Shown here in pieces: positions 10,510 to 59,481 of a stretch of DNA of 64,000 nt. The stretch is taken from positions 23,622,001-23,686,000 of the forward strand of contig OZ210885.1 in assembly GCA_964658305.1 (NCBI GenBank). Direction: 5' to 3'. This DNA comes from Leptogorgia sarmentosa (Eukaryota). Under the pieces are notes generated by a model that searched no databases, had not been told where the DNA came from, and saw only the letters and a list, made by a program, of their open reading frames with translations. Position 1 is the stretch's first letter, and each line of letters starts with the position of its first letter. Both the position numbers and the translations under genes were made by a program.

Positions 10510-11352
10510 TCAATGACAATTAACTATTGTTTGTGTATTGCAAAAAAATAAAACTATTTTAATATACACATGCCATACAATATATAAATGACATAAATCA
10601 AAGAAGCTGACCTGTTCCTCTGGTAATTTATCACTATAAGCACCACTACAACCTTCCCAGACAGAGTCAAAATCATCCTCTGTGCAAAGATAAAGACATA
10701 TCCTTCGATAATCACGTCCTAATTCTTCTTTATATTTCGATAAATGGAAGAACTCTTTCTTTCCTCCAGGCATGAATAATGCTCGGTTGCCATCTTCATA
10801 GAGAAGGACGTATTCTTTGTCTTGCATGAGATTTGAATAATACGCGCCCCACTTGAGTCTTGCAGTCTCCAGAATATTTGCATATGTGGCGCACTTGGGA
10901 ACTTTGATTGGTAACCTTTTTCCCCAAATCTTTTTAAGTTGGTTCCCTCTGTTTTCCATCAAGCCAATGTTTATTGTTACAGGTTCGGCATCTTCCTCGC
11001 GCTTGTTGCAAGCAACTTTTCGTTTCTTTGTTTGCTTTGTTTGCCGAAATTCATTCGATCTTTTATCTTGCAGCCACTCTGTTAACGACTTTGCCTTACC
11101 AAAGCTGCTAGAAGCATGCGTGCTCGTTGCGTTTGACTTCGAAATCGACAGGTTGTCTTTAGAACTCGAAGCTTTTACCTCGTGGTTGGCAGGCCCTGGC
11201 TTGGGCAAAGGTTGTTGATGAAATGCCGCCAAATGGTTACAAGCTAAGCAAACAGACTGCGGTGTAACATCTGTGTCTGTGTGAACAAAAACCTGGCAAT
11301 TCAGATCGCAAGCCTTCTTGAACAAACATTTTTCAAACGTGGCCATTTTCAT
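10510..11352 (-). CDS. IS3EU-type accessory protein, N-terminal exon: Cys/His motif plus conserved LLYxDG..PG..FxLxxYKEELG..Y.RI.LYLC domain
   Basis: 280-aa ORF. Visible alignment to 31339..32136: LLYEDG/LLYPDI, MPGG/MIPGT, YKEELGRDYRRICLYLC/YKEDLGKPYERLTLYIC. Confidence 0.75.
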   Translation of the reverse strand: MKMATFEKCLFKKACDLNCQVFVHTDTDVTPQSVCLACNHLAAFHQQPLPKPGPANHEVKASSSKDNLSISKSNATSTHASSSFGKAKSLTEWLQDKRSNEFRQTKQTKKRKVACNKREEDAEPVTINIGLMENRGNQLKKIWGKRLPIKVPKCATYANILETARLKWGAYYSNLMQDKEYVLLYEDGNRALFMPGGKKEFFHLSKYKEELGRDYRRICLYLCTEDDFDSVWEGCSGAYSDKLPEEQVSFFDLCHLYIVWHVYIKIVLFFCNTQTIVNCH

Positions 11353-11375
11353 GATGAAGAAAAAAATGTCCAGAC

Positions 11376-11560
11376 AAAAATGTCAGAAGAGGGATTTTGT
11401 CATGACTAAACGTTTTGTCAAAAGCAATGGTCAAAAGAGAAAATTTTGTCATGATTAAAAGTTTTGCCAGAAGAGAATGTTTTGTCAGAAGAGAAATATT
11501 TGTCATGGTCAAAAGTTTTGTCAGAAGAGAAAATTTTGTCACAACCGAAAGTTTTGTCGT
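11376..11560. repeat. Subterminal ~18-bp ttttgtca-core tandem repeats
   Basis: Repeated aaaagttttgtcagaagagaaaattttgtcatg variants directly upstream of the accessory ORF. Confidence 0.8.
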
Positions 11561-11882
11561 AATAAGATAGATAGATAGATAAAACTTTTATTTTGATAGG
11601 GTGGTCTCATCAGACCACAACTGGTCTGTTATCAACGAGAGCCCTATATAACTACAATAAGTTCTATAGTACATTCTATCAATTATGTTGTAAAAACTAC
11701 ACTAATGTGAGACTATTAGCTATGATATGATATTAATATATTACTTACGTTAAAATCTATTGAAAGTTTAAAAGTATCTAGAGAAGACTGTGACCTAAGC
11801 GATTAAAAACCTTAACTCAATTATAGTAAAAAGATTTCTTCGCCATTTCTGTTTTAACTCTTGGCAGATGCAATAAATTGCT

Positions 11883-13912
11883 TTAGCGGGTAGTTGTCAC
11901 TGTCAATTGACGATTAAAACTAAAATAGTCACATAAGAATTGAGGAACAATTCCCTTCACACATTTCTTAACTAATTTAAGAACATGCTGTTCTCTCCTG
12001 TTTTTCAGAGTTTCCCATCGCAAATCATGTAACGCGTCGTCACTACAGTTCACCATCACTATCCTTGCTGCTCTGCGTTGTATTCTCTCAAGCTTTTCTT
12101 CATCCCCGGTATTGCAACAATTCCAGACCGTATCGCAATAGTCCAATGCTGGTAGAACATAGGATTTGTAAACGATGTTGGCAGTATGCATCGAAATATC
12201 ATTCCGTAGCCTCCTTAACATTCCAACTTTCGCAGATGTTTTCATCAAAACATGGTGTGTACATGGTCTCTCCAAGACAAACAATCATCCATGACAACAC
12301 CGAGATACTTGTATTTAAACACTCGCTTAATCCTTTGCCCATTTATGGAAATCTCAAAATTTTCTATCGTATGCAACCGCTTTGCAGAGCCAAAAAGAAC
12401 ACATTCCGACTTTTCCGCATGCAGAAAAAGTTTATTCATATTCAACCAGGAATTTAGTGCGTTCAAATCGGATGAAAGAACATTCTCGATATCAGTCACA
12501 CTTTTTCCACTGTAGAAAATTACCGTGTCATCCGCATACATCAATATTGAGCAAGAGTTCACAGCATTCGGCAAGTCGTTTACGAATATGACAAACAACA
12601 GGGGTCCCAATATGGATCCCTGCGGGACACCAGAATTTAATGGTAGTGGATCAGAATAGGTGTTGAGATAGTCAACCAATTGCTTACGATTTGATAAGTA
12701 GTCCTTAAACCAATCCAGTTCACCGCCGGTAACCCCAAAACCATGCAATTTTTTCAAAAGTAAATCATGGTTGACCGTATCGAAGGCTTTGCGAAGATCA
12801 ATAAACACAGACCCTGTAAGCATACCCTGGTCCATGCCACGTCGAATACTATCAGTCAAACTTATACAGGCAGTTTCAGTCGAGTGACGCTTGCGAAAAC
12901 CGCTCTGATACGGACTCAACAAGTTATTATCAACCATAAACTTGTAGAGTTGAATGTGGACAGCTCGCTCTAATATCTTGGAAACAACAGGTAGAATTGA
13001 TACCGGACGGTAATTATCCATATTATCTGATTCCCCCGATTTAAAAAGTGGGATAACTCTTGCCTCTTTCCATTCACTAGGGACACATCCGTTGACCAGC
13101 GAAAAATTTATTATTTTCGTTAATGGATTTGCAATAATTTCAACCGAGTCCTTTAGGAGCCCTGTGGGAATTGCATCTAATCCAGCTGCTTTCTTACTTT
13201 TCAACTTATTAAGTTGACCAAGTGTAAAATTTTCGGATATCTCCTCAAAATGAAACAGTTCATTTGGATTATTGCTTCTCCAGTACATGCCAAAACCCTC
13301 TCCTGATGTAAAAACGGATCCCATGGCCTCAGTTAATCTGGTTGTTGTGCCAACAAAAAACTTGTTGAAACCATTTGCAATCTTCGAATAACAATGCAAC
13401 GACATGTTATCTCCTTTAATATTCCTAGGAAGCACTTTTTTCCCTGGTATTAATCTAGTTAATGTCCTCCAAAAGGACTTGGAGTCTCCAGAATTATCTT
13501 CAATTAACTTCCTATTGTAACTTCCTTTCGCTGATTTCACCATTGCAGTGACACGGTCTCTAAGTGTCTTATACTTTTCCCAATCTGCAGTCGAATTAGT
13601 CTTACGAGCAATTTTGCTTTGTTTATCTCTTTCATACATGACTTTCTTAATCTCCCCATTCAACCATGGACAATCAATTCCTCTCACTCGTTTATTTATC
13701 ACTGGTGCGTGACGATCAGCAACAGAAATAAATGCAGATTTAAAGTTTAACCACATTCGATCAATCACACTTAAATTGGCATTCGGTCTTTCTGGCAAAA
13801 TCGAATTCATTTGCTTCTCCCAATCGATCCCTCGTAGGTCATTACAAAAAGCCGAGCTATTATATCTTGCATAATTTCTAAAAGACTTAGCCTGTCCAGA
13901 TGATCGCTTAAA
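11883..13912 (-). pseudogene. LINE reverse transcriptase and C-terminal domain (frameshift near 12260)
   Basis: NYRPVSILP, QSGFR, DLRKAFDTV, GVPQGSILGP, YADD, YKYLGV, then LDYCDTVW and LERIQRRAAR. Confidence 0.95.
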
Positions 13913-16900
13913 CAGGGATTATTCTAAGGTGCAGTGATAACCAATTTGTGCAGTGATAAATGAGATTTGTGCAGTGATAAAAGAGATTGTGTGCAATGAT
14001 AAAATGCGATATTTATCATTTATTAGAATTTGGGATTAACCTTTAAGCATACAACAACAACGGTTCCTTTACATATTATTTAGCAAAAAGCTAAATAGGC
14101 AAAAATCTTCTGTAAATTCGCTACAGTTTTATGTTCTGAATTTGAACTATATTAATGTCTCGTGAATGTCACCTGTCACCGTAATTGAAAAGTATGTAAG
14201 ACTAAAATTCACGATTCAATTTTTTCTGTTTTGTCGCATTGTCTGCATCTTCTACATCACTCTCAGTTTCGTCCGTATCATCGCGTTGAAAAACTTTCTG
14301 AAACCATGCTTGCCTGTCAGCCTTTGGTGTATCCTTCACGCGCCGTCTTCTTTCATCGATAAAATGACGAACGGCAGGCCTTGGGTCGAATTTTGACAAG
14401 ACTGGCATGTTGATGTTGACATAAAGATAATTACTTACCGTTTTGCGTTCAAGACGATTCCTTGAATTCGTCTTTACGGTGTTGTAGGCAGAGACTAATC
14501 TTTCACAATCTGCTGAGTGTGGTTTGCATACAAGTATCCAGGCCAGCACCTCTGTTAGCGTTTCAGTCTTGTTAGTCTTTTTGCAATAAAGCTTTGGGGT
14601 TGCCTTTATGCATGGTGCTTTCCTGTACATCTTCATACTCTTGTGCCAGATATCGCAGGTCGAGATCCGGTGCCACTGAAGCATGAATCTCTCGGATAAC
14701 TGCTTCACTTGCAGTAAACTTTACAAATGAAGAAAAATTTTTTTTCACGTGATCATCTATCTTGAGCCTTGTTTCCATAAAATTACGCAATGACTGTAAT
14801 ACTTCAACCTTTATCGCGGAGAACGCTCTCGTTTCGGAAACATAGAGATTTCTACGAGATGTGCGTCGTTCTTTTTGCCACAAAACTCTCCCAAAAAATG
14901 TTCCATCTTCCTCATCGTAGCTTTGTAAAAACTTATCTTCCCATCCACCAAGAATTGGGCGTTGGTGTAATTTGTCGATTTTGGCAATGAACTTCTTTGT
15001 TTCTGGGACAATATCAACGATTGTTACGTCGTCTCCTTGCAACTTCTTCTGGAACACCTTCAGAAGGAAAAGAACGTCGCCCAGTAAGCACATAAGCATT
15101 AAGTTGTCTTTGTTTGAGAACAGTTTCCCGAAACCTTTCGCTTGCTCTTCCTCTGATCTTTCACAAAACACCATAAGTGCCCTCCAAGAGATGAGAACAG
15201 CGTCAATCAAACCTGCTGTAAATTCCGTCCACCTGACTTCGTAATACTTTGGTAAGCGCCTAACTTTAAGGTCTTGCTCTTTAGCATACTTTTCAAGCTC
15301 TGCCGTACGAACTGCTGACGCATGGAAAAATGAGGAGATGCCAGAAACTTTTCGTATCAGAGTATCTACTTCTGAAACGTCCTTACACAGGTTATGGTAC
15401 GCTAATGCAGAAGAGTGAACTGCACAGACTGACTTCAACATTGGAAAGGTAGCTTCTTCTTTGGCTCTTTCATCATCAATCAATTTGCACAGCCCATTAT
15501 GCTCACCGACATTCTTGTTTTCCCCATCCGTTGTCATATGGTTGGAAATGGTCAACACTTTATTCAAACGAATTGTATCAGTTGCGCCTTCCTTCAATGC
15601 TTCTAAATCACCCTTGGCACCTCTATTTTTAACATGGCCAAGACCAACATAACGAAGTAATTCGTTTCCATGTTTGTTAATAACATTTAACAACATGAAC
15701 TCATCTTTTTGAGTACGATCCATTGAAGCATCACAACGGAAAGACGCTGCCAGACAATCATCGATTTCTTCTTTAAATCTTGGTAAGTCGGCCTGCACGA
15801 TAATTTTCAAAAGTTGCTGATGACTTGCTGGTGTGACGTATTGTAAGTCGAATACTGACGCGTCATACTCTTCAAAAGGACTGTTATAATCGAAAGTGTG
15901 AGCAATTTCACTAGCTACGACTCTTCGAATTATCAATTTACCGATTCGATTGGCGAGAAGATGTGTTTGTGCATTTGCTATCTTGAATAAGGGTATTGCT
16001 TGTAATTTTTCAGACGAAGATAACCCCTTGATTCTATTTAACTTAACGGACTCTTTATGAGCTTCACTTCTGAGATGGGTTGCTGTTGTTCCACTACGGG
16101 CTTCTGCTCCTGTTGGTGTGCAGATGGGGGGAATTCGACCTCTGTAGCAAAACCTTTTAACAACATCCGAATTTTCATTGCAAACTTTGCATCTTATTCT
16201 TTTTCTCTCTCCAGATTTAGTAGGCACCACTTCAATTTCTTTTGATGTAGTTTCGTGGAGAATAGAGTCATGTTCAGCCTCAGAATTACTGTCACCTGAA
16301 ACTGTTGAGCTTAAAATTGAAGAACTTTCGGTATTATTCGCTTCGTTGAGTTCACTCGATTGATCTGACTGCTCATGTAGCAATTGTGAATTTGAACTAC
16401 CATTCGCCATGTACGCTTGAGCTGGTTCGTTTGCTTCATTAGCATTTCGTATAAAGAAATCAAGCGCTGACTGCTTTTTTGCCATCTTTCCCAATCAATT
16501 GTATTTTGACAGCCCGTTCAGTTGCTTTCCTGTTGCTAAGGAAGTAAAACTGACCAATCAGCTACGACGTTGGTTTAAGTAACTACTTTACTAATATTAA
16601 TAAGTAACAATTATGCCTGAATCACAAACATTTATTCGATCAATGGTTCAACGCTGACAGGTACGTGTTATTGTATTGAGAAGTACTCCATTGAGAAGTA
16701 TTCTAAGATGTACTCTATTGAGAAGTATTCTAAGGTTTGGTTAAGATATTTCCTGCCGGTATTGATCGATATATTTACAACTTTATTCCTCGAGCACGTT
16801 CGTAGGCGCAAGCTTTAATTATAATCATATAATAACCGTCTTACAATAATACAATATGCAATGTTATGAGTATGACGTTATGTAGTCAATTAATACATTA

Positions 16901-17215
16901 ATTTCTTTTCACAGTTTCACTTGTGACAGTCTATTGTGGTATGTGGAGTACATTTATAGTAGTTAAACCCAAAGACAAAGTAGCCCCAGCAATTTTATTG
17001 TCTCCAAAAGCAAGTATACATACACTATACACATGTGTATTATTGCATAATTTGGCCGCATAGAATTAGTCAATAGGTAAACTTTAAGTTGCAGAATCAG
17101 TGCATGTACTCATGCAGGGCAGTCAGAGCTTTTCTAAAACAACGTTATATTTACATAAATTTTACCATTTTTTGCGCTTTTGTGCAGTGATAAAATTTCC
17201 TTAGAATAATCCCTG
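13913..17215 (-). mobile_element. hAT DNA transposon inserted into the LINE
   Basis: 17-bp perfect TIR cagggattattctaagg; 8-bp TSD cgcttaaa (13905-13912) / cgcttaca (17216-17223) with one mismatch; subterminal gtgcagtgataa repeats. Confidence 0.93.
14202..16494 (-). pseudogene. hAT transposase (ZNF862/KIAA1586-like), frameshifted near 14590
   Basis: CDASMD, TTDGE, CAVH, EVRW and the C-terminal dimerisation motif PHSADCERLVSAYN..KT..RNRL. Confidence 0.88.
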
Positions 17216-18435
17216 CGCTTACAATTCATTTTTCTGATACAATATAATAAGTCATGGTCACTAAGACAAGCATTAAGTACTCCAGATTTACTTGTAAACC
17301 TTTCGTTGTTTGTCGCTATCAGATCTAATAATGTGGCGGACCAGGCAGTTATTCTAGTAACCTCCTTGATCAGCTGGCAGAATCCTAGACTTCTGAGTGC
17401 CGAGGTTAACCGTTTACCGTTACCATTCAATGAGCCCTTTGCCAAATTACAGTTAAAATCCCCTAACAGAATAACTTCCTTATTATTAGATATGGCTCTC
17501 TCAGCACTATCTTCAAAATGATCCATAAATGCATCATTATAGTATCGAGAAGACTCCGGAGGTTGATAAAATGTACCAACCAAAAATCCGCGAGAGTGAG
17601 GGAAATTTACTTCTACCCATAGACTTTCCATATTCGACTGCTCTAAATCAAACCTTCTGCTTACCGACAAAATTCCAAGTCCCCCACCTTTCTCTTTAGC
17701 ACCTCTATCTCTTCTATGGAAAGTATATCCTTCAATACTAACTTCTGAGTCAGCAATATCATCCGTAAGCCAGGTTTCGGACAGTGTAAACAAATCGATT
17801 TTTGACTGAACACTAGATATGAGCAAACGAAGCTCATCAATCTTAGGTAACAAGCTGCAAATATTTTGATGGACTATTTTAACACCTAAGCCCCGAAATA
17901 TATCATTCATTTCCGTTGTCACTTGAGAATAGTACCCATCGTTATCGTTGCTAGTATTGCCATTCATTCCTACGAAACATTGCTTGGAAGTTCGGTTTAT
18001 ATCAAAACTCGATTCAAGACATTTCAAATGATTTACTGATTTACATCTTAAACATTCCACCCGCGGTTGATTTTTGCCTATAGGTTTTAAACACGCAGTG
18101 CAGACCAATGTTTCATTCGCAGGGCCAGGGTTTAAGTCAATATCATTACACATAATAAGAAAATTAACAACAGCAAACTGGGTGACAAGTTTGATCGATC
18201 TTACGAACTTTACATCGAAAGGCACAGCTGACTTCGCAAAGTTGGTTTTGGTTGGTCTCATGGGGGCATCAACAATCTCGAATTTAGTAAGGTTTAAAGC
18301 AACGCTAATACCAATATTCCATGGATGCGACCTCTTATCCACATAACCATCTTTTGCGGGATAGAATGACACACAAACAATCAGCAAGACCAAAAAATAT
18401 ATCAATCGCTTCGGGAGCTCATACATAGCCGCCAT
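17216..18435 (-). CDS. LINE ORF N-terminal part: hydrophobic leader, 2A-like DIDLNPGP, PHD finger, AP endonuclease
   Basis: LIYFLVLLIVCVSF; CNDIDLNPGP (18121-18144); CTAC...CLRC...HLKC; NICSL, LSETWL, GDFN, SDH. Confidence 0.9.
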
Positions 18436-18939
18436 CTTGTTATGTGTCTGCCATGTGTCTAATAAAGAGTAATAATTGGTGCTCCGAAATATATAATTGT
18501 TTCAAGAAAAAAACCTTTTTTCCAACTCAAAATAAAATGTTGACATGACACTTGTGGGCCACCGTACAGAATGGATAATGGGCTCTAAGTTCTTCTCTAA
18601 TTCGAATATGAAAGCAACCTGAAGCTAAGAGTATTAATATTATACTGTAGAAAGAATGCGGTTATGACTTATGCGGCTGCCTGTCTGGTTACTGGTTACT
18701 CTGCTTCCGCAAATCGGATTGATACATATTCTACACTTTATCACAGTTACATCTCTGTATGATATATATTCTGTGACTTTATTTCCAAAATTTAACTAAT
18801 TTTAAGATATTTTTGTATTTTCCTTCAACTTTCCTTTATTTTTCCAGAATTTCCTTCAAATTTCCTTCAAAAATTATTTCCTTTTTATTTCCTTCATTTT
18901 GCCAAAAAATCCTTTCAAAAGGAAATTTCCTTCAAAATG

Positions 18940-19400: not shown

Positions 19401-19519
19401 TATTTGGAGTACAATGCAGCACGTTCCGATTTCCTTTCTTTTTATGTATTCCAGACTTTGTTTTGTTTGCTTTTTTTGTAGACTTTAATTTTTCTTGTGG
19501 GCCTTTCTTACACACTGGT

Positions 19520-40827: not shown

Positions 40828-40871
40828 TATGGAAGCCCAGCAGGCTCACTTCAACTTTCATAAAGTACTTG

Positions 40872-41046: not shown

Positions 41047-41214
41047 ACAGCCAAATATTGTTAACGTTTTATCTATACTTAGAAAAAAGTACCTTTTTCA
41101 AAATATTTTTGGTGTTTCAAAAAGTTTTTTTGGCAAATTGAAAAAATTTTTCGCGATTGAAAAATTTTCATGGTGAGTATAGACCATAACGCAACGCAGT
41201 CTTATGATGAAATA

Positions 41215-45332: not shown

Positions 45333-48300
45333 GTGGCTGTCTCACTAAGAACCATGCACCCATTTCAGGTTGAAAATTAGATTTCCTTCAAATTTTCACC
45401 ATGAATTACTGCAACCCTAAAAGGTTTTAAATAAATATCAAAAGTTCCAAATTTGACACCCGATACAACGGCTAACTGCATGTCATATTGTTTATCATAT
45501 CTCGAGAAGTTTTGCGTCAAATTCAAAACTTTTTTGCCAGAATTGAGTTAGACTCCTTCCCTTCTCGAATATATGAAGAATTTATCATACGACTTATTTT
45601 AACAAAAATATTTGGTTTCCAACTGAGTCTATTTTTACTACACAAGCAATATTCCGGAAAGTTACGAAAATTAAAACGAAAATTTCTCAAAAGTGGCACC
45701 TAGTCAGAATCTAAATGTTTATTTTTGTTAAACTAGAACACTTGAAGTAATGTTATTTGCAATAAAACTTGTCGGCAAAGAAAAATTGAACATGTATAAT
45801 ATTTCATAACGTGGGCTATAATTAGCGTTATTGTTTACCTTCTGTGAAAGCTCATCGTTAAGAGGAAATTTGCATTTGTGATTAAATTACGTTCCAAACC
45901 CCAGGTTTGAAGTATGTTTCAATTTGGAATGTTTTTTTGTAGCAAAGTTACATTTCCAAAGAAGATAAACAACCGTACAAAAATAACAAAATACCAAGAC
46001 AAATTGTGCTTTTATTCCGTCGCGTTGATTTAATTTCACGGGGTTTCAAATAAATGTATGAAGCCTAGTAAATCTACTACGACTGATTATACTAGGAGGA
46101 AAACATCGGAGTTGTTTGGACGAATGAACTTCTAAATTTGAAGAATGAAAAGTTTATATGTCTATCTATCAGTCAGGATCAGAACCGTTAATTGAACAAA
46201 AGCTACACCCTTTCAAATATTAATTAATAATGTCAAATTAAATGAGATCCCAGAGATGAGGTCCATAATATTCGTTATAATTACATAACATTATGTCTCA
46301 CTTAAGAATGCGTACTCAGGTGAAAATTAGTAGACACTTCTCGTTGCTTGTTTAGAATTCAGAGTAAGAAGAAATTCTTATTCTAGTAGTACAGTGCTGT
46401 TAGGCACTAAGGTGGCGAAACGTCGACGCTGACGAAACTTTTCCCAGTCTCTCACTTTATAAAGGTCCCTATTTGAATTAGATAACATTATAAAATCATG
46501 TGAAAATCGCTGTTTCTTACATCTAGGAATATAATTAACAAAAAGCCACAATGTTCCCAACACGTCCAGACGAGAATTAGAGTCCATCGTCCGTCACTGA
46601 TTCTGGGAACAAGCACATTGTTCAATCATGTTCGAGATTATGTTGATCAGATCTTGTTTCTTGTCCCTTGATTTAAACTGCATATCAAAATGTTTGCAAA
46701 TTTCTTTTAGCATCGGTACTTTGAAAACGGATAGCTGTTCTTTACTGTACATGTCACACAAGTCATATGCATCGTAATATATGGGGTGGGTGACGTTGAT
46801 TGCAGAAAATATGTCGTTTACTAACGTTTCTCTTGCTTCTTCCTCCTCACAATTGCTATAATCTTCGTTTTCGTCTAATTTGTCTTCGTCAAGTTGCCCT
46901 TTCCTTCGTTGCTTCGCTAATCTTGAAAAAAAGCCCTTTATCTGCTGCTTATTCAGCCATTCTTCCTTTGGAAATAATCTCTCTCCACCTTCATTCCTGG
47001 CGCCCCGTATGTCCAATGAAACTTGTGCTGGGTCTGCTTTGTGGCCCGTTCGTTCTCCAAAGTCGAATTTTGCAGTCAGGTACTTTTTCACTTTATCAGA
47101 AAACCTTACAGATCCCGTTTTTGGTTGGCTTAAGGCCCAACCCATCTCAAGAGGGCTTATTGTACTTACTATAATACCACTCTGTTTATAAGATGCTTGG
47201 ACATTCTTTGATGTGAGTGTCTTGAAGTTATTCGCCCACTCTCTTCTAAGAACATCGTAAATACTTTCATTATTGACGAACCGACTATGCTGTCCTACAT
47301 CAATGTGTAGCTCTAAGTCCTCGAAGGACTTGAAAACGCAGTTGCAGCCAGGCTCAAGACATTCAAATAAACCCTCAGATTCTGCACCATCAACTGTACT
47401 TTCCTTTTTCAATGTTGTCTGTCTGACTGAATTAATGTCTGGGAATTGTTCCTTCACTTCCATCTGTGTCTTGCCCTGATGATGAACGTATATTGATTTA
47501 TCATGTACTTTCTTTCCCTCCCCTATTTCAAACGCTTTCCATACTCTGATACCATCTTTCTCGTACTTGAAATTGTGATAGCTGCTAAAGTTTGTTATCT
47601 TCTTTACTTTAAGCTCCTCTGCGGATTCATTAATTTTATTTACCGATGCCGAGGTTCCCTTTACAGTGTGATAACTGAGTGCAGTGTACATGTCTTTGGC
47701 GTTAAGAATGTCATGCCCTTCGTTGCAATATCTTCGAATAGATGACTTCAGCGGACTGATAATTCGATCGCAGATGTCTTTACCTTGTTGAAGCTCCGAG
47801 AAATGGTAACTATCAACTGAAATCCCGACCCGTTCCCCAATATCTTTTACTGCTGATATAAGAAGGTTATTGTGATAGCATCCAGCTTCATCTGACCTGA
47901 GGTAAGCTTTATTTACAAGTGGGAATTTACATTTTACGGCAGAGAGAAGATTTTCTATGATAGAAGCTACAGCGAACCAATCTTGAGTACAGGAATCAAA
48001 TAAATGAGCATATGTGGTCACCACAACTGTGTCTGTCGACGTGCCTTTGGAAACAACACTGCTCACATGCCAACTAAGTCCACGCTTTCCGTACCAATCA
48101 GACTGTTTCTCTCGGAATTTGGTCTGCTGGAATTTCATAGCCCAGTCCATAACTATAAGAACACTGGATTCATCAAGATTGTCCAAAACTTTCTGTTTTG
48201 CTCTCTCCTGATTAATTGATCGAAGAATATGTGATTTCCATTTCTGAATATTTTGAAAGGATTCCTCAAAATCGTAAACGAGCTCTTCTTTCACATCTTT

Positions 48301-51300
48301 TGTGCAGGAAAGGTGTTGGTTTTCTTGAAGTTTGTCACGAATTTCCTCCAATGTGGACTTTATGTTGTCGCAATTTTCACATACCATGGCGTGTTCATGC
48401 GCACAATTTAACTGGAATTCGCTTTCTGCAGGATCACTTAATGCAAACGCCCTACAATGATCTGCACATGGACTCTCATTTTCTTGGCAGTGTACTTTAT
48501 AATCTGTTTTGAGGTATTGCTTTGCTTTTTCCAATCTTTTGATTGTTTCCTGCGACCATTTTATATCAACACCTGAATGTTCCAGCCGTTCACAAATCTT
48601 TTCCATTGTACTGAATGCAGTCGAACCATCTGCCGCTGTGTTGTCTAGACCCTGTAGAGACTTGCGCTGTGATGCTTCTCTCACCTCAAGAATGCGAAAT
48701 AAGGTTGCCCTGCTAAGTGGCTCGAAACCGTCTTCAGTACAAAATTCTAAATACTGTGCAACCATCGTTGATCTTGTTACAGTACGCACAACATTCGGCA
48801 TTTCTATTGTCTCCCCATTTCGTAGTTTTAAATTCCTGGTTCCAAAAGCGACATCTTGATGAAAGTATGGACGATTCGCAAAGTCGATAAAGTGATCCAC
48901 TTTACCCATATTAAGACTGATTCGATGGTGCTTGGTTTTCTTCATCTCACGACCAGGTCCACAGGTTCTGGCATGGGCGCGAGCCCTGTCTATTTGCCAT
49001 CCACTAAGCTTGCCATATGGTTCGTGCAATTTCTGTAGTGCCTTTTTAGGTAGCTCGTATGCATATATGCTCAATATCTGTGTTCTCAAATTTCTGGTGG
49101 GTGCTTGGACAAAAGCATTTACTAAAGGTAAAAGGTGATCACATGTAGTTTCACGTGGTAAACTTTGAAATAACTTGTCTCCATCGTTAGGTGCGATGAT
49201 GCTGCAGATAATTTTACAGGCGTCAATTGCTTTGGCTATGCACTCATTCTTTTGCATAGAGTTAGCCGATTCCAGATCGTTTATTTGAAAGGATAGCTCT
49301 GATGGTTTGTCCATCCCAGCAAGTTCTGACAAATTATCCATTGCTTGATTGAACTTCGTCACCGTTGAAGCATCCGGGTGGTTATTGTCCTGCTCCACGT
49401 CACTGTCTGTAAAATATGCACTAGCGCATCCTGCTGTCCAAAGGGAAATATTTTCAGGCGTTTCTGAAGAGGAAGACGGACTACTAACTACACTCAGGTC
49501 TTCCATCTGATCTGCCAAAGGAACTACTGTTCGTCTAAAGACATAGTTATTTCATTGATTGAAATTTCAATTCCGAAATGCACGTTTTATATATTTAATT
49601 TTATATTTATAAAAAACATTTTCTTACGCTATATATACCTAGAAGATTCCACATTAACTCTTTCGTGGCTTTGAAGTTGTTCAGGATTCATCCAAACACT
49701 TTCTTTCTCCATTCTCTGTCGGTGTATCTGTCGACATTGTCTGCATATTGCTAAATACAAGTAAATACATTTATAGGGAAATAGAATCAAATACAGTTTC
49801 GGCCGCGCTGTAAAACATAACCCATGAAGAAGTGCGTGGAAGGAAATAGTTTCATACGTTAGTTAAAATCCAGTTTCTCATGGTATGTTTAGACAATACT
49901 TACGAGATCCTAATTGAACAAGTTTCCCATAAAGGGTAAATACTGCCTCTGATAATGAAACGTTGAAGACATCTCGCCCTGCGCACTTGCGAACAGGGCC
50001 TGAGTGAATCGGATACTGGCAAGATCTCAAAGGTCTCCAAAATCGCCCCAAATTATGACGATGAGACGGACAAATGGTCATTTTCTTATACTGATTCTCG
50101 CTAAGATGGAACATTCCGGCACGTAGTGCAATCAATTGACTCTCTCCCAAGTTCGACTTTGAAAGATGACAGGTTGCAAGCTGACTTTTTATGTCTTCTT
50201 GACAATCGAATAGGTTGCATATCTCCCGCAAACCACGATTTTCACCACAACTAATGCCACCAATGCCAACGAACGAACATTTTTTCTCCATAGTGCGAGA
50301 TGTTTCGCCAAGTAGTAGTACTAGTACTACGATAAACGTCAGTAACTTCGCAGTGTATCGCTAACGACAACGCAATATATAACAACAGATAGTCATTTAT
50401 TCTGCTTGTTTGTTTACTAAACTTGCCTTGTCTATGGAAAAATGTTTTAAAATTGCCAGTTAAGTTAATATTTGAAAGGGTGCGACACCTTACTAAAATT
50501 GTTAATTTCATTATATCATTGTGTTACAATACAGTGCAACAGCCAGCCATGCGTTTAAGCTTGAAAATTAGGGGTTAATTGTAGAATACAAGAATCTGTT
50601 GATTTATGATGTTCTCCTACGAGTATCATTGTGTATTAGTAGCACTGCAAAGATAATGTGAAGCCGTGAAGCCATGCAGCTTGCGTATTTACCGTGATTA
50701 AACGACAATTTGTCGAACACAAACATTTTGTATGATTATTTATCCTCTTAAGAAGTCAAACTCTGTCGAAAAATAAGAGTCCTATTATTAAAACATCCTT
50801 CCATGATGGAATTTGACTTCGAGCCTGAGGTTTAGAACATAATTTATTAACATTGATTAAATTTACTTGCAACGACGAGGACTCTGTTTTCACAGAAGGT
50901 AAACAATAACGCTAAATAACGCTAATTATAGCCCATGTTATGAAATATTATACATGTTCAATTTTTCTTTGCCGACAAGTTTTATTGCAAATAACATTAC
51001 TTCAAGTGTTCTAGTTTAACAAAAATAAACATTTAGATTCTGACTAAGTGCCACTTTTGAGAAATTTTCGTTTTAATTTTCGTAACTTTTCGGAATATTG
51101 CTTGCGTAGTAAAAATAGACTCAGTTGGAAACCAAATATTTTTGTTAAAATAAGTCGTATGATAAATTCTTTATATATTCAAGAAGGGAAGGAGTCTAAC
51201 TCAATTCTGGCAAAAAAGTTTTGAATTTGACGCAAAACTTCTCGAGATACGATAAACAATATGACATGCAGTTAGCCGTTGTATCGGGTGTCAAATTTTA

Positions 51301-51474
51301 GTCTCGTCAGCGACCGAAGTATAAAGGGTGGGAAAACTAAGAAAAAAATAAACTTTTGGAACTTTTGATATTTATTTAAAACCTTTTAGGGTTGCAGTAA
51401 TTCATGGTGAAAATTTGAAGGAAATCTAATTTTCAACCTAAAATGGGGTGCATGGTTCTTAGTGAGACAGCCAC
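45333..51474 (-). mobile_element. Sola3-like DNA transposon with ~520-bp TIRs
   Basis: Near-identical long TIRs 45333-~45849 vs ~50888-51474 (gtggctgtctcactaagaacc...), with ~57 extra nt in the right copy. TTAA on the right flank only. Transposase motifs as in the CDS feature below. Confidence 0.78.
46594..50291 (-). CDS. Sola3-like DDD transposase, 3 exons (50291-49904, 49750-49639, 49534-46594), 1146 aa, open throughout
   Basis: GT-AG introns keep the frame (GS-P-ICRQC; SS-R-RTVV). Motifs VMDWAMKF, REKQSDWYGKRGLSWH, RSDEAGCYH, GKDICDR; C2H2 finger CLEPGC...HIDVGQH. Confidence 0.82.
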
Positions 51475-52468
51475 TTAATAATTTTGTCTAGTTTATCACA
51501 AGACGAACGGGAGTGTAATTTAAATTTAACTTATCCGCCGTTTAGGCTGAACGGGGTACGAACAACTGGGCCCTGATATGGAATATGTGTGATCTGCATG
51601 CAGGACTGGCTTATATTTGCATGTGGCTAATATTTGGCACTTTCTTAAAATATTGAAAAACTCAATCGAACATTTTAAATACTATCATTGATTTTTCTAC
51701 TGCTATATAGATTATGCCTTCGCTATGTCTACATGCCACTTATATGAAATGAATTGGTGTGGTTCATTGATAAGCATAATAATCACCGCATACGAAAGCA
51801 GAAGGATCGCAAAACTCCTCAGGGAATACCCGAAGATCTTTACAATTTTCCAGATCATTTTGGTAGCGTTTTTTCCTTCAAACGTCACTTATTCGTATGT
51901 ATATTAAATTGCGCATAAACATTTAAGTAAACGTGATAGCTGGTTTTTTTTCAGGTTTTCGCAATGCAGGTTTTCAACCCAATGACAACGACATATCTTC
52001 ACTGGTAGAAGAGAATGGTTTTAATAAGCCAATCCCTCATTTTATGAATAACGAACGTTTCGTTGGACTGGCCAACGAGTTTTTGGATGAGCCAGTTACA
52101 ATAACCAATGCGAAAGAAGTTTACACATGCCTTGTTCAGTTCATGGAAACAAATTTGTAGGTGAAATATGAACAGTATTTACATTAAATATCAACTATTT
52201 GCATAATACAGTTATTATAAGACACATATTAAACTAAAACAAATTTTAATATAAGAAACATTAACGTTTGATAGTCACTAAACTAAACTTTTTGAAAGAC
52301 AATTCCAACCTATATACGTATAAGCCACTTATAGCTTGAAGGAGCTCTTCGACAATCTGTCTTCATCATTTTCTTCTATATATTTATAAAAGAGAAAATA
52401 GATTACAGGCCCACATTATTTAGTTGGAAAAAGCGACATATATATGTATGAACGAAAATATTCCTATA

Positions 52469-53053: not shown

Positions 53054-55279
53054 TATTAATAAGTGCATACATTTTGCAATATATTTTAGTTGTATTTATA
53101 GAAAGTTAAATATTTTTTTGTGTATGAACGCTGGTATACATACTATTCTGAACTATCGGAGGGAGGTTTAAAGTTTGGCAAACATATCCGCATTTGTGCG
53201 TCTTTTTGAATGTTTCAATCGCCTCACTGCCAACATTCCCAATTCCATAATACCTAAATGTATAGGTTATATACAGTTTCAACTATTTATTATAACAAAC
53301 ACAAATCTAATGCAGTTTCTTGGTACCCTTTTTCTTTCGTTGCCAATTCGATGTCTGTGAGCTTTAAGTTGACGCCTTTAGAAAGGAGAATTTAAACTAA
53401 TATTTCTCTCAAATATAAGTTTCAAAGACGGGTACAATACCCTACACTCTTTCAAGGAAGTTGATTAAATAAACTTGTAAATCAGCGATCATGAAGTCCC
53501 CGTGGCTGAAGATCAATGACCAATGAACTAAAGCCATGCATGTAACCGCAGCACTCCCTTTGCATTGATTTCGTTCTTTGCCTTCGTTTCCGATGTACTT
53601 TGTGAAGTGGCCTGGTAGAATGGGTTCCATCATATAGACATCGCCACTTGTTTCCTCAATGGCCAAAAATGCACTTATAACCCTACAGCAATAAAGATGA
53701 CAAAAAGTCAGACGCGTGCATACTTTCAGCACGCAGAAGAATTGAATGGAAGAAAACTCTGCACATACTCCGGAGCATCAGTCAGTTGTGTCTTGTACGT
53801 TTGACTAAATTGCTCCACCAAAGAACGGCAAACCATTTGTGTCTGAATTTCCTGAAACAAAATCAACATGCTTTATCTGCTCTTAGACATTTCATTCCAA
53901 TTCTGATTATAAACATGCTTAAATTTACTTTTTTTGCAATGGATTTAATCGATCTGTTTTTTTCTTCAGCTGCATTTACGACTGTGTCATTAAACCGCTT
54001 CAATAAAACATCTGTTCCTTTTGAGAATGTTCGCAACAAGTCGTGAGATAAACCCTCCAAAACAGTTGCTTTACTTGCTATTCTCATGCCACCTTGACCA
54101 AAATCTTCTTCACTGACTTCCATTCGCATGTAACCAAGTATTTTCCAGGATTTTGATTCAACAAAGAAAGTCGAAATTTGATAAATTTCGGCTTATATAT
54201 GAAAATAATACAGAAACTGAGATGGTAAACATAAATTATTATCAAAATATATATGAAAAGTAGAAAATATTTCTTCCAATCTTGCTACCTGAATTAATTA
54301 GCTCATCAACTTTTTTTGGGATGATTGACATACCACACCGTAGAACATCTTCCTTTGACAAAGTAGCATGTGCTTGGAAAGAAAAATTATAACAGATATT
54401 TCACAATTTGAACAAAGCTGTTATGTGAGAACAATTTTCCTGCCACTTCAGATAGAGTTTACCAGTGCCCTACACACTTTACAGTGATTACAACAGAAGA
54501 TTGATATAGCAGTGCGTGGTGATACTGGACTTTTTTCATGACCATTTAGTAAAATGCTCAACTTAATTAATGTTGATTTCATTTGTAGGACATAAAGTGA
54601 TTTTAGATTTAGTAAACTAAGTACCGGGTAATTTTGTTGGTAAATCCACAACTTCTTGTAAATCTTCATCACTACTTTTGCTCGGTTGACTGCTTTCGCT
54701 GAGGTTTGAGAGTGTGCTCTTTTGAATGGATGATGTAGAGTAAATATCTTTCTGAAATTTAAATTAAAATGGCTTGTTGTTGTGGATACAGCCTGATATT
54801 AATATCGAAAATTTGTAATTTACCTCAGTATAAAAAAATGAAAGCTAGTTCTGTTGAATGTGTAAGTAGGGTCTTTTGCAATAGCTTTTCCATCTAATAG
54901 AAAAAGTTCCAGATTTCTTTCCTTCACCTCCTCATCATAATTGTCTTTTGGTATATTTAAAAACTCCTCAGCACAAGCTTTTAACAGATTTTCAATAGTA
55001 GTTGTACTATTTGAGGAACAGTGGCTGCGATGAATTCTGTTCTTTTTCTTTTATTGAATTCTTTCATTTCAGAAAAAGCTACAAAAACATTGGCTAAAAC
55101 TTGCTGCATTCGTATGAATGGACGTCAGGAGTGGGCATTTACAGGCATATATCAACTGCCCAAATACTTTTTGTGCTAGGGGTACCCTTATTCTGGAATG
55201 AAATTGAAGTGCTGAATATTGTAATGATTTTTTGGAAGAGAATAATTCTGGTCAGTGCTTCCCTCACCAAGTTTTGAGG

Positions 55280-55746
55280 CACCGGAAGCAATCCAGGGCA
55301 GGGGCGGGGGGAGCAACATCTTTATAAAGAGCTTTTTTTTTTACATTGGCAAATAAGCAGAACTGCTTATTTGACATAAGATAATGCAATAAAAATTAAA
55401 CTTTTGTGCATTTAGCATTTCGTATATTAATATCGCATATATATGACGTATTATTATACCTTCACGCTTTGGTATCGTAATTCTAAACATATTTTAATAT
55501 GTATGGCCTTACATTTTATCAATAATTCATTACTGCTTAGTCTGCTTTTATATCGCGCTCACCGAGATCGCGCTTTAAGATCGTTTGTCAATTATCGGCC
55601 GACAAGTGACGACGACCAACGATTAATTAGGGTGATAAAATAATTCAAACTTTATAGCCAAAGGGCAAAACTGCCCCCGCTGTCCCCGACAACGAAAGGC
55701 AGGAGGGGCAGCTACCCCCGCTGCCCCCGTGGTTCCGGCGCCTCTG
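55280..55746. mobile_element. hAT-type MITE in an intron of the kinase gene
   Basis: 8-bp TSD ttttgagg (55272-55279 / 55747-55754); right TIR ggttccggcgcctctg; left TIR lacks its first ~6 nt. Confidence 0.75.
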
Positions 55747-57066
55747 TTTTGAGGTGCCAAAATACCTGTCAATATATGCTGTTCTAGGTAATAAAGTTAG
55801 TAGTACTAAACAATCATTCATTGTACACACTTTTTGGAGTATCTACTGTTCTCTTTTTCTCATCAGTACCTTTTACCAAATTGCCCTTTGCTATAGGGAT
55901 CTGTCGCTTATAGGGTTTTAACTTTATTGAACCAATAACAATAAATCACAAAATCACTCTCTCTCTCTCTCTCTTAAATCGCTCTCGTTCACTCTAAATT
56001 TAGCTCGCACGTGTCCCGCAACGTCAGTCAACTTTTCCTAATATGGCAATGTCAATCCACTGTATCTCTCAGTCTCCGACAACCTAAAATGAAATAAAAA
56101 GAATAATATAGCTTTCTCGCTATTATAATAAACCTCAATATGTTGTCAAACAGCGGCACCAACTTACATGACTTATTCCAGACAAAGGGCATTTGCTCAA
56201 AAAGACGAATATGTTTGTATTATTCAGGTAACTGATGAGTATAACTTTTGCTGCTTGTAGATATACTTATATCCAAATATTAAACCATATAAATTACTGT
56301 CTATTCAATACCTGCTGACATGGACACATGCCCAAGGCCTACGTGTTCATTAGGCAAATGTCCACATGCGTAACAATCATTAGTTCCAGGCACGTGCACA
56401 TACTTTTTACATGAGCATTCACCTTCGCCACCACTACATCCAACTTTAACCACCTTGAAAGAAGCAAAAAAAATAATATAATAAAAGTGAAATTGAATAA
56501 ATCTCAAAATGTTTCTTAATTAATGCACACAAGTTTACATGAACTGCTGCAGGATGACTGCATTCAGTGCAAACATTGCTCCCAGTTTTGACCGCATATT
56601 GAATGCAGGTACATTTCCCACACTTTCCTCGCAACACCTTGTTGTGATCTGAAAGATGATGATAAATTAATAATTTGAATGTTGAAATGTGAATAAAAAA
56701 TTGTGAAATACAATAATTATCGTTTATTATTATTCAGTTTATTATTCACTCAATTTTGATTGGTTAATTTACGTGCAAATAACTGCCTGCAAATATCACT
56801 TCAACTGCCAAAATTGGCGCAAACAGTTTACTGATCATGCTCATTTAGTTCAAAACTCGCTCAGCTGCAAATAATGGTTTGTTTGGATTACTTGCTTGTT
56901 TTGCAGAACATTTTGCGAATGAGTTCTCCTCTCTTTAACACGTTTATAATTCAAAGGAACGAAATTGGAGCTAAACGACTTATATTGGCGTCCCAAAGTA
57001 AACTTTCTACCGTGGTCGGTAAATTTTACGCCGAAGCGAGAGACAAAAGATCAGTAAATAATAAAC

Positions 57067-57628
57067 TGAATAATAAAACAATTATCGAACTCGGCTGTCG
57101 CAGAATATCGTGATTTATCAGTGGCGAGCAGATAAATTATTTAATCGTAAATAATTGATCTGCTCGCCACTGATAAATCACGATATTTTGCTCAGCCTCG
57201 TCCAATAATTTTATTTATTATTTATTTCAAATAATTTCAAGAGCCTAATTATTCATAAGCTCTAATTATTTCAAGAGTTTTGATTGGCTAAGAGCAGTGC
57301 GTTAAATTTTCATATGCGACATTATGACGTAATTATGTCGTATATTGACATTATAACGTCTACTAATTTATGCTGCTTATGCCAAAAGCTGAAAAATACA
57401 AGTGGCTTTCTTAAAGGTGGTTCTTGTGTACAATGCGTATACCCTAAGTCTGATAAAGATACAAATAAATAATAAAACAATTATTGAATTTGGTTCTCGT
57501 AGGATATGCTGAATTATTAAGGCCTCGGTTTGTGTTATTTGCCTCACCCTTCGGCTTCGACAAATAACACAAACCTCGGCCTTAATAATTCCTCATATCC
57601 TACTTGACCTCATTCAATAATTGTTTAA
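57067..57628. repeat. Two related long hairpins (57067-57210 and 57470-57628), possibly Crypton-type non-autonomous element ends
   Basis: aatatcgtgatttatcagtggcgagcagat...atctgctcgccactgataaatcacgatatt and aattattaaggcctcggtttgtgttatttg...caaataacacaaacctcggccttaataatt; both are preceded by aataaaacaattat. Confidence 0.6.
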
Positions 57629-59481
57629 TAATTTGAATAACAAAATATCAAATATCACATAATTACCATATGCTTCTGATGCCGCCATATTGTCTGTGCT
57701 TCCACCAATGAACTAGCTTCCACTTTTTCAGCACAAAATCAGTGCGCGTTGCATCATGGTCTATACTTGCCGAAAAAATTTTCAACTTGCAAGAAAAATT
57801 TTGAACTTGCGAAACTTTAACTTCTCATGAAATTTTTTAAAAACATCAAAAATATTTTGACAAACTGTGCTCTCTTTTTCAACTTTCGAAAATCGTTGAG
57901 CTTTTCAATTACTTCGAATAACATATGAGTTGATATATGTCAATACTAAGTTGATTTATGAAAATATTGAGTTGATATATCAAATTACTAAGTTGATTTA
58001 TGAAAATACTAGCAGCTGGGAAATTTGTTGCGCATGCGTCAAATGTGACTTGCGTGGTCTCCACGAACTAACATCGCGCGCAGGATCTTTAAAATTTGTA
58101 AACAAAAACATGAGCGGGATTTTTTTCTCTTGTGCCTCGTTTCTTTGGCTGTTTTTATCGCTGTTTTTGCAGTTGCAAATAGGAAGGACCTTTATTGTGC
58201 CGTATGCGGCAAATGCTGCAAAAAGAATTAAATTCTGCAAGGAATAGCTTCCGCAAAGCGCTGTTTTCGAGAGCTGTTTCGGTGTATCCTACGACGAAAC
58301 AGGGATATTATGCTCTACCTGTCGAACTTTAAAGGCGAAATTCAACTTGAAGCGCAATTTTCTCCTCAAAACGATTAGGTATTTATTTTTCCTACCTATC
58401 CAGAGAATTCAAAAATAGGAACAAGATTTTGGAGACTTTGGTTAGATTTTTCACAATTTTGCCGAGTTTCGACCCAATTTAATTCCTGATTGAGACGAGA
58501 AAATATAGCGAGATATAGTTTAAAATATTTTTTGTTCTAAAAGGAGTAACGGTTTGGTTTCTTTACACAAGTATTAATAAATTAGTACCAGAAACTAGAG
58601 CAAAAAATGAACCAACTACATCCAATTGATTCGCTATCGTTCGTCTTGATATGGCAGACATCAAAATTCAACCGATATGCAATGTTTGACATAGATTCCA
58701 CGATTTTGGTCGGAAGGGCAATTTTCATATCAACAAAATGCTGTTTATCAAAAACAACAAACAATGTGAATATCAAATTTAGTAACAAAACTTTGGAGAT
58801 TTCGTCTAGATTTTGAGCTTTCGAAGCTTGCCCGCCATACGTCTGTCTTGGGTCTATAACATCAACAGATGCGAAGCAATGTAAACTTTTGCTCACCCTG
58901 AACAAATGTGAAATTATCTGGCAAAAACAGAACCAGGGGTGACACATGAAGTTGTAAGGAACATATTATACACTCTTTCCAGTTTCAAACACCCACAAGT
59001 GGCAGTGAATCTTTACTCAAAGCACGCGCGTGCCAAAATTGTGTTCAAATTATCGGTCAACATCCTTGTGTGTATATGTGCTGATCACTCGCACAAGTTT
59101 GTTTCAAATCACTTGAAAAATCGTCTTCTGTCAGACCATAGATAACAGTTCACGTACAAGTTAGTTTTGATCCATGTAACCAAGCGAGTTGGCGCACAAT
59201 TTACAAATAAACACAACACTTCGCAAGGCATAATAACACGTTCAAACCCTAGGTGCCTTCGTCGCCAATATTTTAGTAAAATGTACCATTAAAAAGGACA
59301 TATTCAACATCTGAAGCAAACTTGGTGTGCTAAGAACAACTTCCTACTCTTTAAATAATTCGATTATGGCTCAGAGAAGCTCAGATCTCAAACAAACATG
59401 CGCTTTGCATTTTCATTCGAAATTTACAAATTCGAACAAAAAACAGGTTGTGCCCGCAATTTCTCTGCACAGCGACAACAA

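Follow-up and report, generated by a model that had tools for sequence, protein, structure and literature searches.

The DNA stretch analyzed here is a 64,000-nt window of the Leptogorgia sarmentosa genome (assembly GCA_964658305.1, contig OZ210885.1, positions 23,622,001 to 23,686,000 of the forward strand; coordinates below are those of the window, with position 1 at its first letter). It contains three elements, denoted A, B and C, that are probably old cut-and-paste transposons of the IS3EU/GingerRoot type, combining a transposase with a modular second gene predicted to encode a protein-modifying enzyme. Elements of the IS3EU type have a wide distribution among fungi and aquatic animals. 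The basic unit would consist of two long inverted ends with TAYGG tips enclosing two convergent genes, with each start lying 300-415 nt inward of an end. The second gene combines a small zinc module (either a Cys/His finger of the type found in A or a zinc ribbon), a linker and an enzyme: in A and B, the zinc module is followed by a ubiquitin-like domain and, in B and the relatives of A, then by a very divergent HECT-like domain, and in C, two fingers precede an alpha-kinase. The evidence comes from the window itself, protein collections, contigs from six DNA-like sequencing runs and published papers. Contig depth was counted at a likeness of at least 85%, no splice joints were seen in the contigs of these DNA runs, and the linkage between the second gene and an element end is drawn from three loci in this one window, which is AT-rich (GC content of 34-40% over most of its length) and dense in transposable elements.

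The ends of the elements are marked by a 20-nt tip, TACGGTGGCYCACAAGKGTC, which occurs three times in the window, at 18566 (minus strand), 27069 (plus strand) and 38732 (minus strand), with a chance expectation of 0.01; three copies were reached in none of 100 shuffles. The original prediction, made from the letters of this stretch, attributed TAYGG termini to all three elements. Such termini are present at both ends of B, at the single end of A and, in the form TATGG, at the left end of C, whereas the right end of C is degenerate. The ends proposed for B, 27069 and 38732, proved exact, with AGATTT on both sides. The features of B are as follows.

27063..27068, no strand: left AGATTT copy of the 6-bp target duplication (right copy 38733-38738)
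27069..27203, plus strand: outer left inverted end with the tip TACGGTGGCTCACAAGGGTC, pairing with pieces of the right arm
27204..31183, plus strand: nested Harbinger-like element in the left arm, 3,980 nt, TAA duplication
31187..31385, plus strand: inner left inverted end (arm match)
31456..32127, plus strand: second gene, exon 1 (ATG at 31456; donor placed by eye)
32375..33780, plus strand: second gene, HECT-like exon (frame change near 33700, insertion at 33781)
33781..35186, no strand: nested palindromic insertions resembling miniature inverted-repeat transposable elements (MITEs), inverted repeats I4, I16 and I18
35723..37051, minus strand: IS3-like DDE transposase (helix-turn-helix, WHLDG, intron, RTDCGTEN, NQRIEAWW)
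37151..37381, minus strand: inner right inverted end (arm match)
37382..38646, no strand: very abundant repeat inserted in the right arm, ~1.26 kb, boundaries approximate
38647..38732, minus strand: right tip (tip and arm match)

Once the insertions are taken out, the inverted ends of B extend over ~340 nt. Their arms pair in three blocks, the outermost one between 27069-27151 and 38732-38647 (90.7%), the middle one between 27174-27203 and 37381-37352 (90%) and the inner one between 31184-31385 and 37354-37151 (95.6% over 205 nt). The right arm, with ATTAATAAAGAAG, is unbroken at the position where the Harbinger-like element, which has 33-nt perfect inverted ends (GGCCACATAAAA, beginning GGCCAC), splits the left arm. 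The left arm, in turn, has only 22 nt in place of the repeat at 37382-38646, the depth of which is 110,000-280,000 compared to ~200 nearby. The possibility that the inner 200-nt inverted repeat of B is a separate nested element was considered and rejected because this repeat is continuous with the outer arm after removal of both insertions. In two X1 contigs (X1 only), 27068 is joined to 38735 with 14 other letters between them; therefore, a version of the flank without B exists, and the break points coincide with the ends of B. One contig each of X1 and X6 joins 32559 to 36046, which corresponds to an internally deleted form of B that skips 3486 nt. As described in passages of PMC10045372 and PMC12730594, the hallmarks of IS3EU are TAYGG..CCRTA tips, a 6-bp duplication and an IS3-like transposase. 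Judged by its sequence, B is a complete IS3EU/GingerRoot-type element in which every testable hallmark is present: TACGG..CCGTA tips, the 6-bp AGATTT duplication, and an IS3-like DDE transposase with a helix-turn-helix domain.

Element C extends from 40828 to ~58067 and interrupts the reading frame of a long interspersed nuclear element (LINE) after ...ANSIPTV. The originally proposed left end, 40828, holds; the right end does not, as there is no TAYGG at 58010 and the arm runs on to ~58067-58070. The features of C are as follows.

40828..41211, plus strand: left inverted end with the tip TATGGAAGCCCAGCAGGCTCAC, then 21/42-nt tandem repeats
41212..42806, plus strand: nested Tc1/mariner element in the left arm (26-nt perfect inverted ends, TA flanks)
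42828..44898, plus strand: transposase exons (ATG at 42828; WHIDGHDKLKPYGF, RSDAGTEN, RIECFW)
45188..51573, minus strand: nested 6.4-kb element splitting the transposase gene (~650-nt inverted ends, 985-aa open reading frame, ORF)
51727..51915, plus strand: last transposase exon (tblastn 3.4e-4 on 51727-51867)
53109..54192, minus strand: alpha-kinase exons (54192-53866, 53777-53445 and 53282-53109)
54823..55050, minus strand: exon claimed to echo the domain shared by A and B (homology unsupported by hidden Markov model (HMM) search, hhalign or phmmer)
56343..56622, minus strand: two A-type zinc fingers (56622-56539 and 56417-56343)
57667..57688, minus strand: proposed, inferred first exon of the second gene (ATG.../GTAATT)
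57746..58067, minus strand: right inverted end (tip degenerate, end approximate)

The tip TATGGAAGCCCAGCAGGCTCAC (TATGG) and the tip of B are alike, by eye, in ~15 of 22 positions. The arms of C, 40856-41197 and 58011-57746, are 70-83% identical and contain the 21/42-nt tandem repeats. A CCATA at 59136-59140 was considered as the right end of C, given that CCATA..AACAGTT recurs there, and no arm similarity was found at that position. The sequences CCATACCAACAGTT (40815-40828) and CCATAGATAACAGTT (59136-59150) border the entire stretch that interrupts the host LINE, with ~1.07 kb (58071-59135) between the right arm of C and the resumed LINE. The subterminal part at 40867-41049, consisting of the 21/42-nt tandem repeats, contains candidate transposase-binding sites.

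Element A is an end fragment that includes one tip (18566) and the first exon of the second gene.

10612..11352, minus strand: second gene, exon 1 (ATG at 11352; ends at a CAG/GT donor)
11353..11558, minus strand: subterminal region preceding the second gene, containing repeats of GACAAAAY-type words
11566..18468, minus strand: nested retrotransposon without long terminal repeats (LINE) splitting A (endonuclease 17134-18501, reverse transcriptase 12245-13918, (ATCT)n tail)
18469..18566, minus strand: terminal 98 nt with the tip TACGGTGGCCCACAAGTGTC, which matches that of B; the flank beyond is CAGAAT

The GACAAAAY words in the subterminal region of A are candidate transposase-binding sites.

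With the nested insertions removed, the distance from the tip to the ATG of the second gene is ~305 nt in A, 405 nt in B and ~380 nt in C (305-405 nt overall). The claim that an accessory gene starts just inside one of the inverted ends thus stands for three of the three elements, but only in these reconstructed forms. That the genes in question are host genes lying between transposon fragments, with the TAYGG motifs representing unrelated solo ends, is highly improbable. A does have a single end only, and C has a degenerate right tip with a target duplication of at best 4/6 (AACAGT and AACATC). However, the ends of B, its duplication and the 27068/38735 junction lacking B enclose both genes as one inserted unit, C lies within a LINE reading frame, and the two arms form inverted repeats 270-340 nt long in both B and C.

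The transposase of B matches the Pfam profiles rva_4 (1.4e-24; 87 bits, with a cut-off of 26) and rve (0.0015), along with HTH_21 (1.2e-5, under the family cut-off). A tblastn search with this protein identifies two exons of the C transposase, 44057-44215 (51% identity, 4.5e-13) and 44409-44573 (1.1e-10), and the exon 44024-44227 matches rva_4 (3.7e-11). The second gene of B is convergent with the transposase gene and starts just inside the opposite inverted end. Its exon 1 encodes a zinc ribbon (31462-31527; Pfam Zn_Ribbon_1, 7.9e-6), in agreement with the original assignment, followed by a linker and the ubiquitin-like domain (31741-32085). The final portion of the C-lobe is missing from the HECT-like exon; the lobe continues in another frame from ~33700, and an out-of-frame ...NTCA... 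stretch (33534-33869) matches the conserved cysteine of the relatives. Given this frame change and the palindromic insertions at 33781, the second gene of B is broken.

The ~110-aa domain shared by A and B was recognized in the original prediction, and a tblastn comparison bears this out (142 residues aligned with E 1e-10; 31% identity in a 114-residue core). In exon 1 of A, this domain (10992-10651) follows an A-type finger (11310-11218) and a basic linker. Among 1.84 billion representatives, a profile made of A and B retrieves 1297 clusters at E<=1e-3, 653 of these at E<=1e-10, and an HMM built from 154 stretches from these clusters identifies A and B with E 2e-44 and 6.8e-37, respectively. 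No Pfam family covers the shared-domain stretch in any of the 149 listed proteins; two named members are from a jellyfish and a deep-sea eel, and a language-model search places the domain next to unnamed clusters of mollusc, chordate and cnidarian origin. The ubiquitin-like family is large (1297 clusters) and unnamed. An AlphaFold2 model of the A domain (76 aligned sequences) has a mean predicted local distance difference test score (pLDDT) of 94.5 and shows the strand-strand-helix-strand...helix-strand order of a beta-grasp. A Foldseek search with this model yields no match at E<=1e-3; the best rows are still of the beta-grasp kind, and the nearest solved structures are ubiquitin-like domains, whose beta-beta-alpha-beta-beta topology is present in the model. 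The ubiquitin-like domains of USP11 and plexin, the PI3K Ras-binding domain, FERM F0/F1 and Par3-NTD are comparable folds to which the A/B domain shows no sequence similarity. With this confident model, the suggestion of a possibly ubiquitin-like fold gains firm ground, and the shared domain of A and B is predicted to adopt the ubiquitin-like beta-grasp fold. Its partners in the 149 proteins include Zn_Ribbon_1 in 13, CUE in 2, and RING, a UBZ/RNF220-like domain, the Pfam HECT C-lobe and a Myb-like domain in one protein each. The CUE, RING, UBZ and HECT partners, all recognized as sequence matches, point to the ubiquitin system.

The region that follows this domain in B was predicted to be HECT. 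For B exon 2, an AlphaFold2 model (43 sequences) has a mean pLDDT of 65 with a mostly confident core at ~120-430, and a Foldseek search with it detects 36 chains at E<=1e-3, all listed ones being HECT domains; the best is 3jw0_D (3e-5, template-modeling (TM) score 0.35/0.41). The HECT prediction is thereby confirmed by fold only, with the Pfam HECT profile silent: in the model, B exon 2 has a bilobal HECT fold. An HMM of this HECT-like region built from 14 long relatives identifies the B exon with E 1.2e-25 and no other of the 2028 pieces of the window at E<=1. The HECT-like region is present in 61 of the 156 proteins with the ubiquitin-like domain, including the closest relatives of A, P0001-P0004, and PF00632 matches one of 149 relatives (P0117, C-lobe, 2.2e-9). 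All 12 complete C-termini retain W.TGQ, F.H.C, the HT[IV]C[FY]P-like motif and AC...P..HM. The third of these contains a conserved cysteine, and the relatives retain a cysteine at ~35-45 residues from the C-terminus; the choice of the conserved cysteine that would be catalytic is inferential. P0001 additionally gives a weak UIM-like match (E 0.1). The HECT domains of ubiquitin ligases in the PDB (NEDD4, SMURF, WWP, HUWE1) are the only structures that the predicted B fold matches at E<=1e-3. The B-type sequences differ from these ligases in that the identity is only 12-19% and the N-terminal part has the ubiquitin-like domain with a zinc ribbon or finger rather than C2 and WW. The original prediction envisaged swappable effectors. 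The enzyme of A is absent from the window, and the HECT-like region seen in B is also that of the relatives of A; two effector classes, not three, are therefore represented in the window.

The second gene of C is encoded on the minus strand, in the order: first exon at 57688, finger exons, the exon 55050-54823, and alpha-kinase exons. The exon 53777-53445 matches Alpha_kinase (PF02816) with E 1.9e-11 (44.8 bits, with a cut-off of 21.3) over profile positions 73-143, and the exon 53282-53109 matches it with 3.8e-4 (21.0 bits) over positions 161-185. Positions 1-72 and 144-160 of the profile are unmatched in C, and the exon 54192-53866 has no Pfam match. The claimed alpha-kinase is thus recovered, and the second gene of C is predicted to encode an alpha-kinase. 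The exon at ~55060-54824 was claimed to weakly echo the domain shared by A and B. Reading by hand places good acceptor and donor sites around this exon (55050-54823), and its language-model neighbors, with similarities of 0.77-0.84 (under the 0.9 line), are mostly ubiquitin-like families (Plexin_RBD, PI3K_p85B, FERM_f0, Kindlin_2_N and Ubiquitin_GT-1), which echo the structural neighbors of the A domain. By sequence comparison, the case for specific homology of this exon to the A/B domain leans negative, and the claim is not upheld.

The second gene of C could, in principle, be a chimera of decay, in which the finger, middle and kinase exons come from separate genes or elements and share one strand by chance. 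The lack of an open splice path across 54823, the several MITE-like insertions between the exons and the lack of relatives for two of the exons would fit this explanation. Nevertheless, it appears quite unlikely: all the pieces share the minus strand, their order makes sense, they fall between the right inverted end and the 3' end of the transposase gene, and the depth across 53300-56770 is even and single-copy.

The N-terminus of A and two exons of C fit the pattern C-x(1-4)-C-x2-[FYW]-x(4-14)-C-x2-C-x-H-x4-H. Across all six frames, the window has three matches to this pattern, one in A and two in C, and 100 simulated windows have none. The short form CxxCxHxxxxH, which can be read from A alone, picks the same three places, compared to 0.12 expected. 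The same finger is N-terminal in P0001, P0002, P0003, P0011 and P0114, and P0001-P0003 also carry the HECT-like region. A reverse HMM search, started with the two fingers of C against 2184 sequences, places A-type fingers in all of the top five non-self positions (P0003, 0.005; P0114, 0.022; P0011, 0.022; A, 0.03; P0001, 0.06), with noise starting from 0.26. In a BLASTP comparison, the A finger and the first finger exon of C are identical in 8 of 16 residues (E 0.031). The likeness of the repeats of C to the N-terminal finger of A, noted in the original prediction, is therefore backed by both the motif counts and the reciprocal HMMs, and the fingers of A and C are probably homologous. The presence of the A-type finger on HECT-like proteins and ahead of the alpha-kinase of C is evidence of domain shuffling between a ligase and a kinase version.

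These observations are compatible with a mechanism in which both genes would be co-expressed from the near-identical inverted ends (the arms of B are 95.6% identical to within 71-100 nt before each ATG). The zinc module, together with the ubiquitin-like domain where there is one, would recruit the enzyme to a shared partner (the transposase, the ends or a host factor), which would then be ubiquitinated or phosphorylated. Swapping of the C-terminal enzyme, with related N-terminal heads retained, would have given rise to the ligase and kinase versions. The enzymes are predicted to modify proteins in the transposon's favor. The original notion of a conserved adaptor with swappable effectors fits the finger, which occurs on both ligase and kinase forms, but no module was detected in all three elements. 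One adaptor with exchangeable enzymes is accordingly suggested through the finger only. In a stronger form, the second gene would be a plug-and-play effector, with a conserved targeting head (zinc finger or ribbon, often plus the ubiquitin-like domain) docking on one fixed partner, be it the transposase, the ends or a host silencing factor, the enzyme swapped between a HECT-type ligase and an alpha-kinase, and the 1297-cluster ubiquitin-like/HECT-like family, known from marine animals and fish, being largely transposon-borne; this is a speculative and rather doubtful extension.

A different explanation holds that the second genes are independent passengers, that is, unrelated host genes captured separately by different IS3EU lineages. 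The features in common would then amount to a small Cys/His pattern and a fold that are both widespread, and the genes would neither share an adaptor nor take part in transposition. It would account for the absence of the ubiquitin-like domain from C by every sequence test, the absence of alpha-kinases from all 149 domain proteins and the weak E-values of single fingers, and there is a precedent in the TET/JBP passenger genes that pass between transposon superfamilies, according to a passage in PMC12730594. We consider independent capture unlikely, because the position and orientation of the second gene and its distance from the tip agree across all three elements, and the top five non-self matches of the reverse finger HMM are all A-type fingers. 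Moreover, as far as described in PMC12730594, fungal IS3EU elements constantly pair the transposase with an opposing alpha-kinase gene, which would not be expected of a random passenger.

Several results weigh against the interpretation of A, B and C as two-gene transposons with modular second genes. No second end, transposase or later exon of A was found in the window. The arm similarity of C reaches ~58067-58070 without a clean TAYGG there. The Pfam HECT profile (PF00632) has no match at E<=10 in B exon 2, P0005 or P0001, a comparison of P0005 with sequences of solved structures yields no HECT chain and only two chance-level rows, and the HECT fold assignment itself is made at a mean pLDDT of 65 and TM scores of ~0.35-0.43. 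In C, the finger and kinase exons are assigned to one gene by strand and order, and no frame continuing through 55140-54700 into a coding-looking downstream frame was found by hand. Word-indexed searches, which are weak evidence, found no relatives of the exon 54192-53866 at E<=0.001 or, among longer proteins, of the exon 55050-54823 at E<=0.01. The latter exon scores 1.3 bits (E 37, within noise) with the 154-stretch HMM of the ubiquitin-like domain, has an hhalign probability of 0.38% over the same helix and strand that the original prediction had aligned, and gives nothing significant with phmmer. The finger expression was written after the sequences had been seen, and with an HMM of five A-type fingers the C exons rank 4th and 5th of 2028 pieces, with E 0.8 and 0.97. 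Finally, the modules are distributed in pairs at most, with the ubiquitin-like domain in A and B, the A-type finger in A and C, and the zinc ribbon in B. Even so, the description of the three elements as IS3EU/GingerRoot-type transposons with a transposase and a modular second gene remains the probable one.

The depth of the B and C cores in X1 is ~100-220, the same as that of the surrounding single-copy DNA, and several of the nested repeats exceed this depth by a factor of hundreds to a thousand. Therefore, B and C are low-copy, old elements. None of the three elements is intact, and the copies in this window are inactive. The stretches 37382-38646 and 57262-57720, with a summed contig depth ~1000 times that of the neighboring DNA in four runs, are very abundant short repeats or MITEs that landed in B and C, respectively. 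Among the palindromic insertions of B, the bin 33717-34117 has a depth of 3630 compared to ~100-200 in the adjoining bins.

The two-gene organization itself is known. Passages of PMC8232023, citing Kojima 2019, state that the described IS3EU elements encode two proteins, and, according to a passage in Kojima 2025 (PMC12730594), in all TET-positive IS3EU families an alpha-kinase gene lies opposite the transposase. The anatomy of a two-gene IS3EU-like system claimed for the window is largely borne out but was already in print (PMC8232023, PMC12730594, in the passages cited), and so were IS3EU alpha-kinases. More generally, several transposon superfamilies carry conserved host-derived proteins that are thought to regulate transposition (a statement in Kapitonov 2012, PMC3520738). 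The fungal IS3EU elements, including those of rust fungi, share with the elements described here the tips, the 6-bp duplication, inverted ends of more than 30 nt, the IS3-like transposase and, as in C, an alpha-kinase gene in the opposite orientation (passages of PMC12730594). They differ in that the host here is an animal; the relevant passages of that paper devote one sentence to the kinase and describe neither a zinc-finger or ubiquitin-like head nor a HECT-like second gene. GingerRoot (Cerbin et al. 2019, PMC6839031), which was united with IS3EU in Kojima 2023 (PMC10045372) and is found in corals, sea anemones, oysters and fish, has the same 6-bp duplication, inverted ends of 100-150 nt or longer, the same TA..TA termini and an integrase-related DDE transposase; in the available text of PMC6839031, the words kinase, ubiquitin and ORF2 are absent, and the second gene lies outside the description. 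Styx/REP9 of Zymoseptoria (PMC8232023, PMC10853768) is a related, fungal four-gene element with other extra genes (DUF3716) and, in the passages on it, no ligase or kinase head. A literature search for IS3EU paired with HECT found none, with Repbase Reports and bioRxiv supplements, which may describe such genes, outside the search; a search on alpha-kinase, HECT or ubiquitin-ligase passenger genes of transposons found nothing relevant beyond PMC12730594. The second gene with ubiquitin-like and HECT-like domains in animal elements appears to be new, as does the finger common to ligase and kinase forms in one genome; the size of the unnamed ubiquitin-like family is new.

The nested and neighboring elements deserve a brief description. 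The LINE within A matches RVT_1 (1.2e-38) and Exo_endo_phos (1.6e-10) in Pfam, is bordered by duplicated TTATTAC (18475-18469 and 11565-11559), and is itself interrupted by a hAT-like ORF (14202-16494; Dimer_Tnp_hAT, 0.0012); a 640-aa ORF at 14572 gives nothing significant in Pfam at E<=10. Two retrotransposon-type ORFs, 17134-18501 and 6409-8028 (both minus strand), contain 2A-like D[IV]ExNPGP words: DIDLNPGP precedes the endonuclease domain in one case, and DIELNPGP precedes an OTU protease domain (Pfam, 2.1e-12) in the other. These sequences suggest ribosome-skipping peptides in LINE-like elements. The ORF 5532-6446, which adjoins 6409-8028, is a tandem array of NPEKV-type repeats. Just outside the A tip, the ORF 18874-19785 (minus strand) includes a ...SDCGLFA... 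stretch that resembles, by eye, Ulp1/C48-type proteases, with no Pfam match at E 0.01, and the ORF 20676-21023 (minus strand) is integrase-like (...AYHPQTNG...). The Harbinger-like insertion in B has single-copy depth, and its ORFs include a CW-type zinc finger (Pfam, 7.8e-6) and match no known transposase family in Pfam; a 203-aa ORF at 29326 gives nothing significant in Pfam at E<=10. The Tc1/mariner insertion in C encodes a 344-aa ORF (41411-42445) that matches DDE_3 (2.2e-16); the element is apparently intact and probably inserted recently. Classification of C itself as a Tc1/mariner element was rejected because the DDE_3 ORF lies within separate, perfect 26-nt ends flanked by TA. The insertion 45188-51573, which may be an unclassified DNA transposon, contains the 985-aa ORF with a C2H2-like stretch and a 160-aa ORF upstream; the 985-aa ORF has no Pfam match even at E<=10.

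This analysis defines a large, unnamed family of ubiquitin-like domains and a HECT-like family missed by Pfam, and it illustrates how nested insertions conceal the true architecture of IS3EU-type elements. For the annotation of animal genomes, the implication is that "ligase" and "kinase" genes of this sort may belong to transposons. If the second gene encodes a modular enzyme that targets a single partner, the elements would represent a rare case of a cut-and-paste transposon with its own post-translational regulator and would offer direct access to the factors that restrain transposition in the host. Should the exchange of enzymes behind a common head be real as well, ubiquitination in some lineages and phosphorylation in others would serve the same goal.

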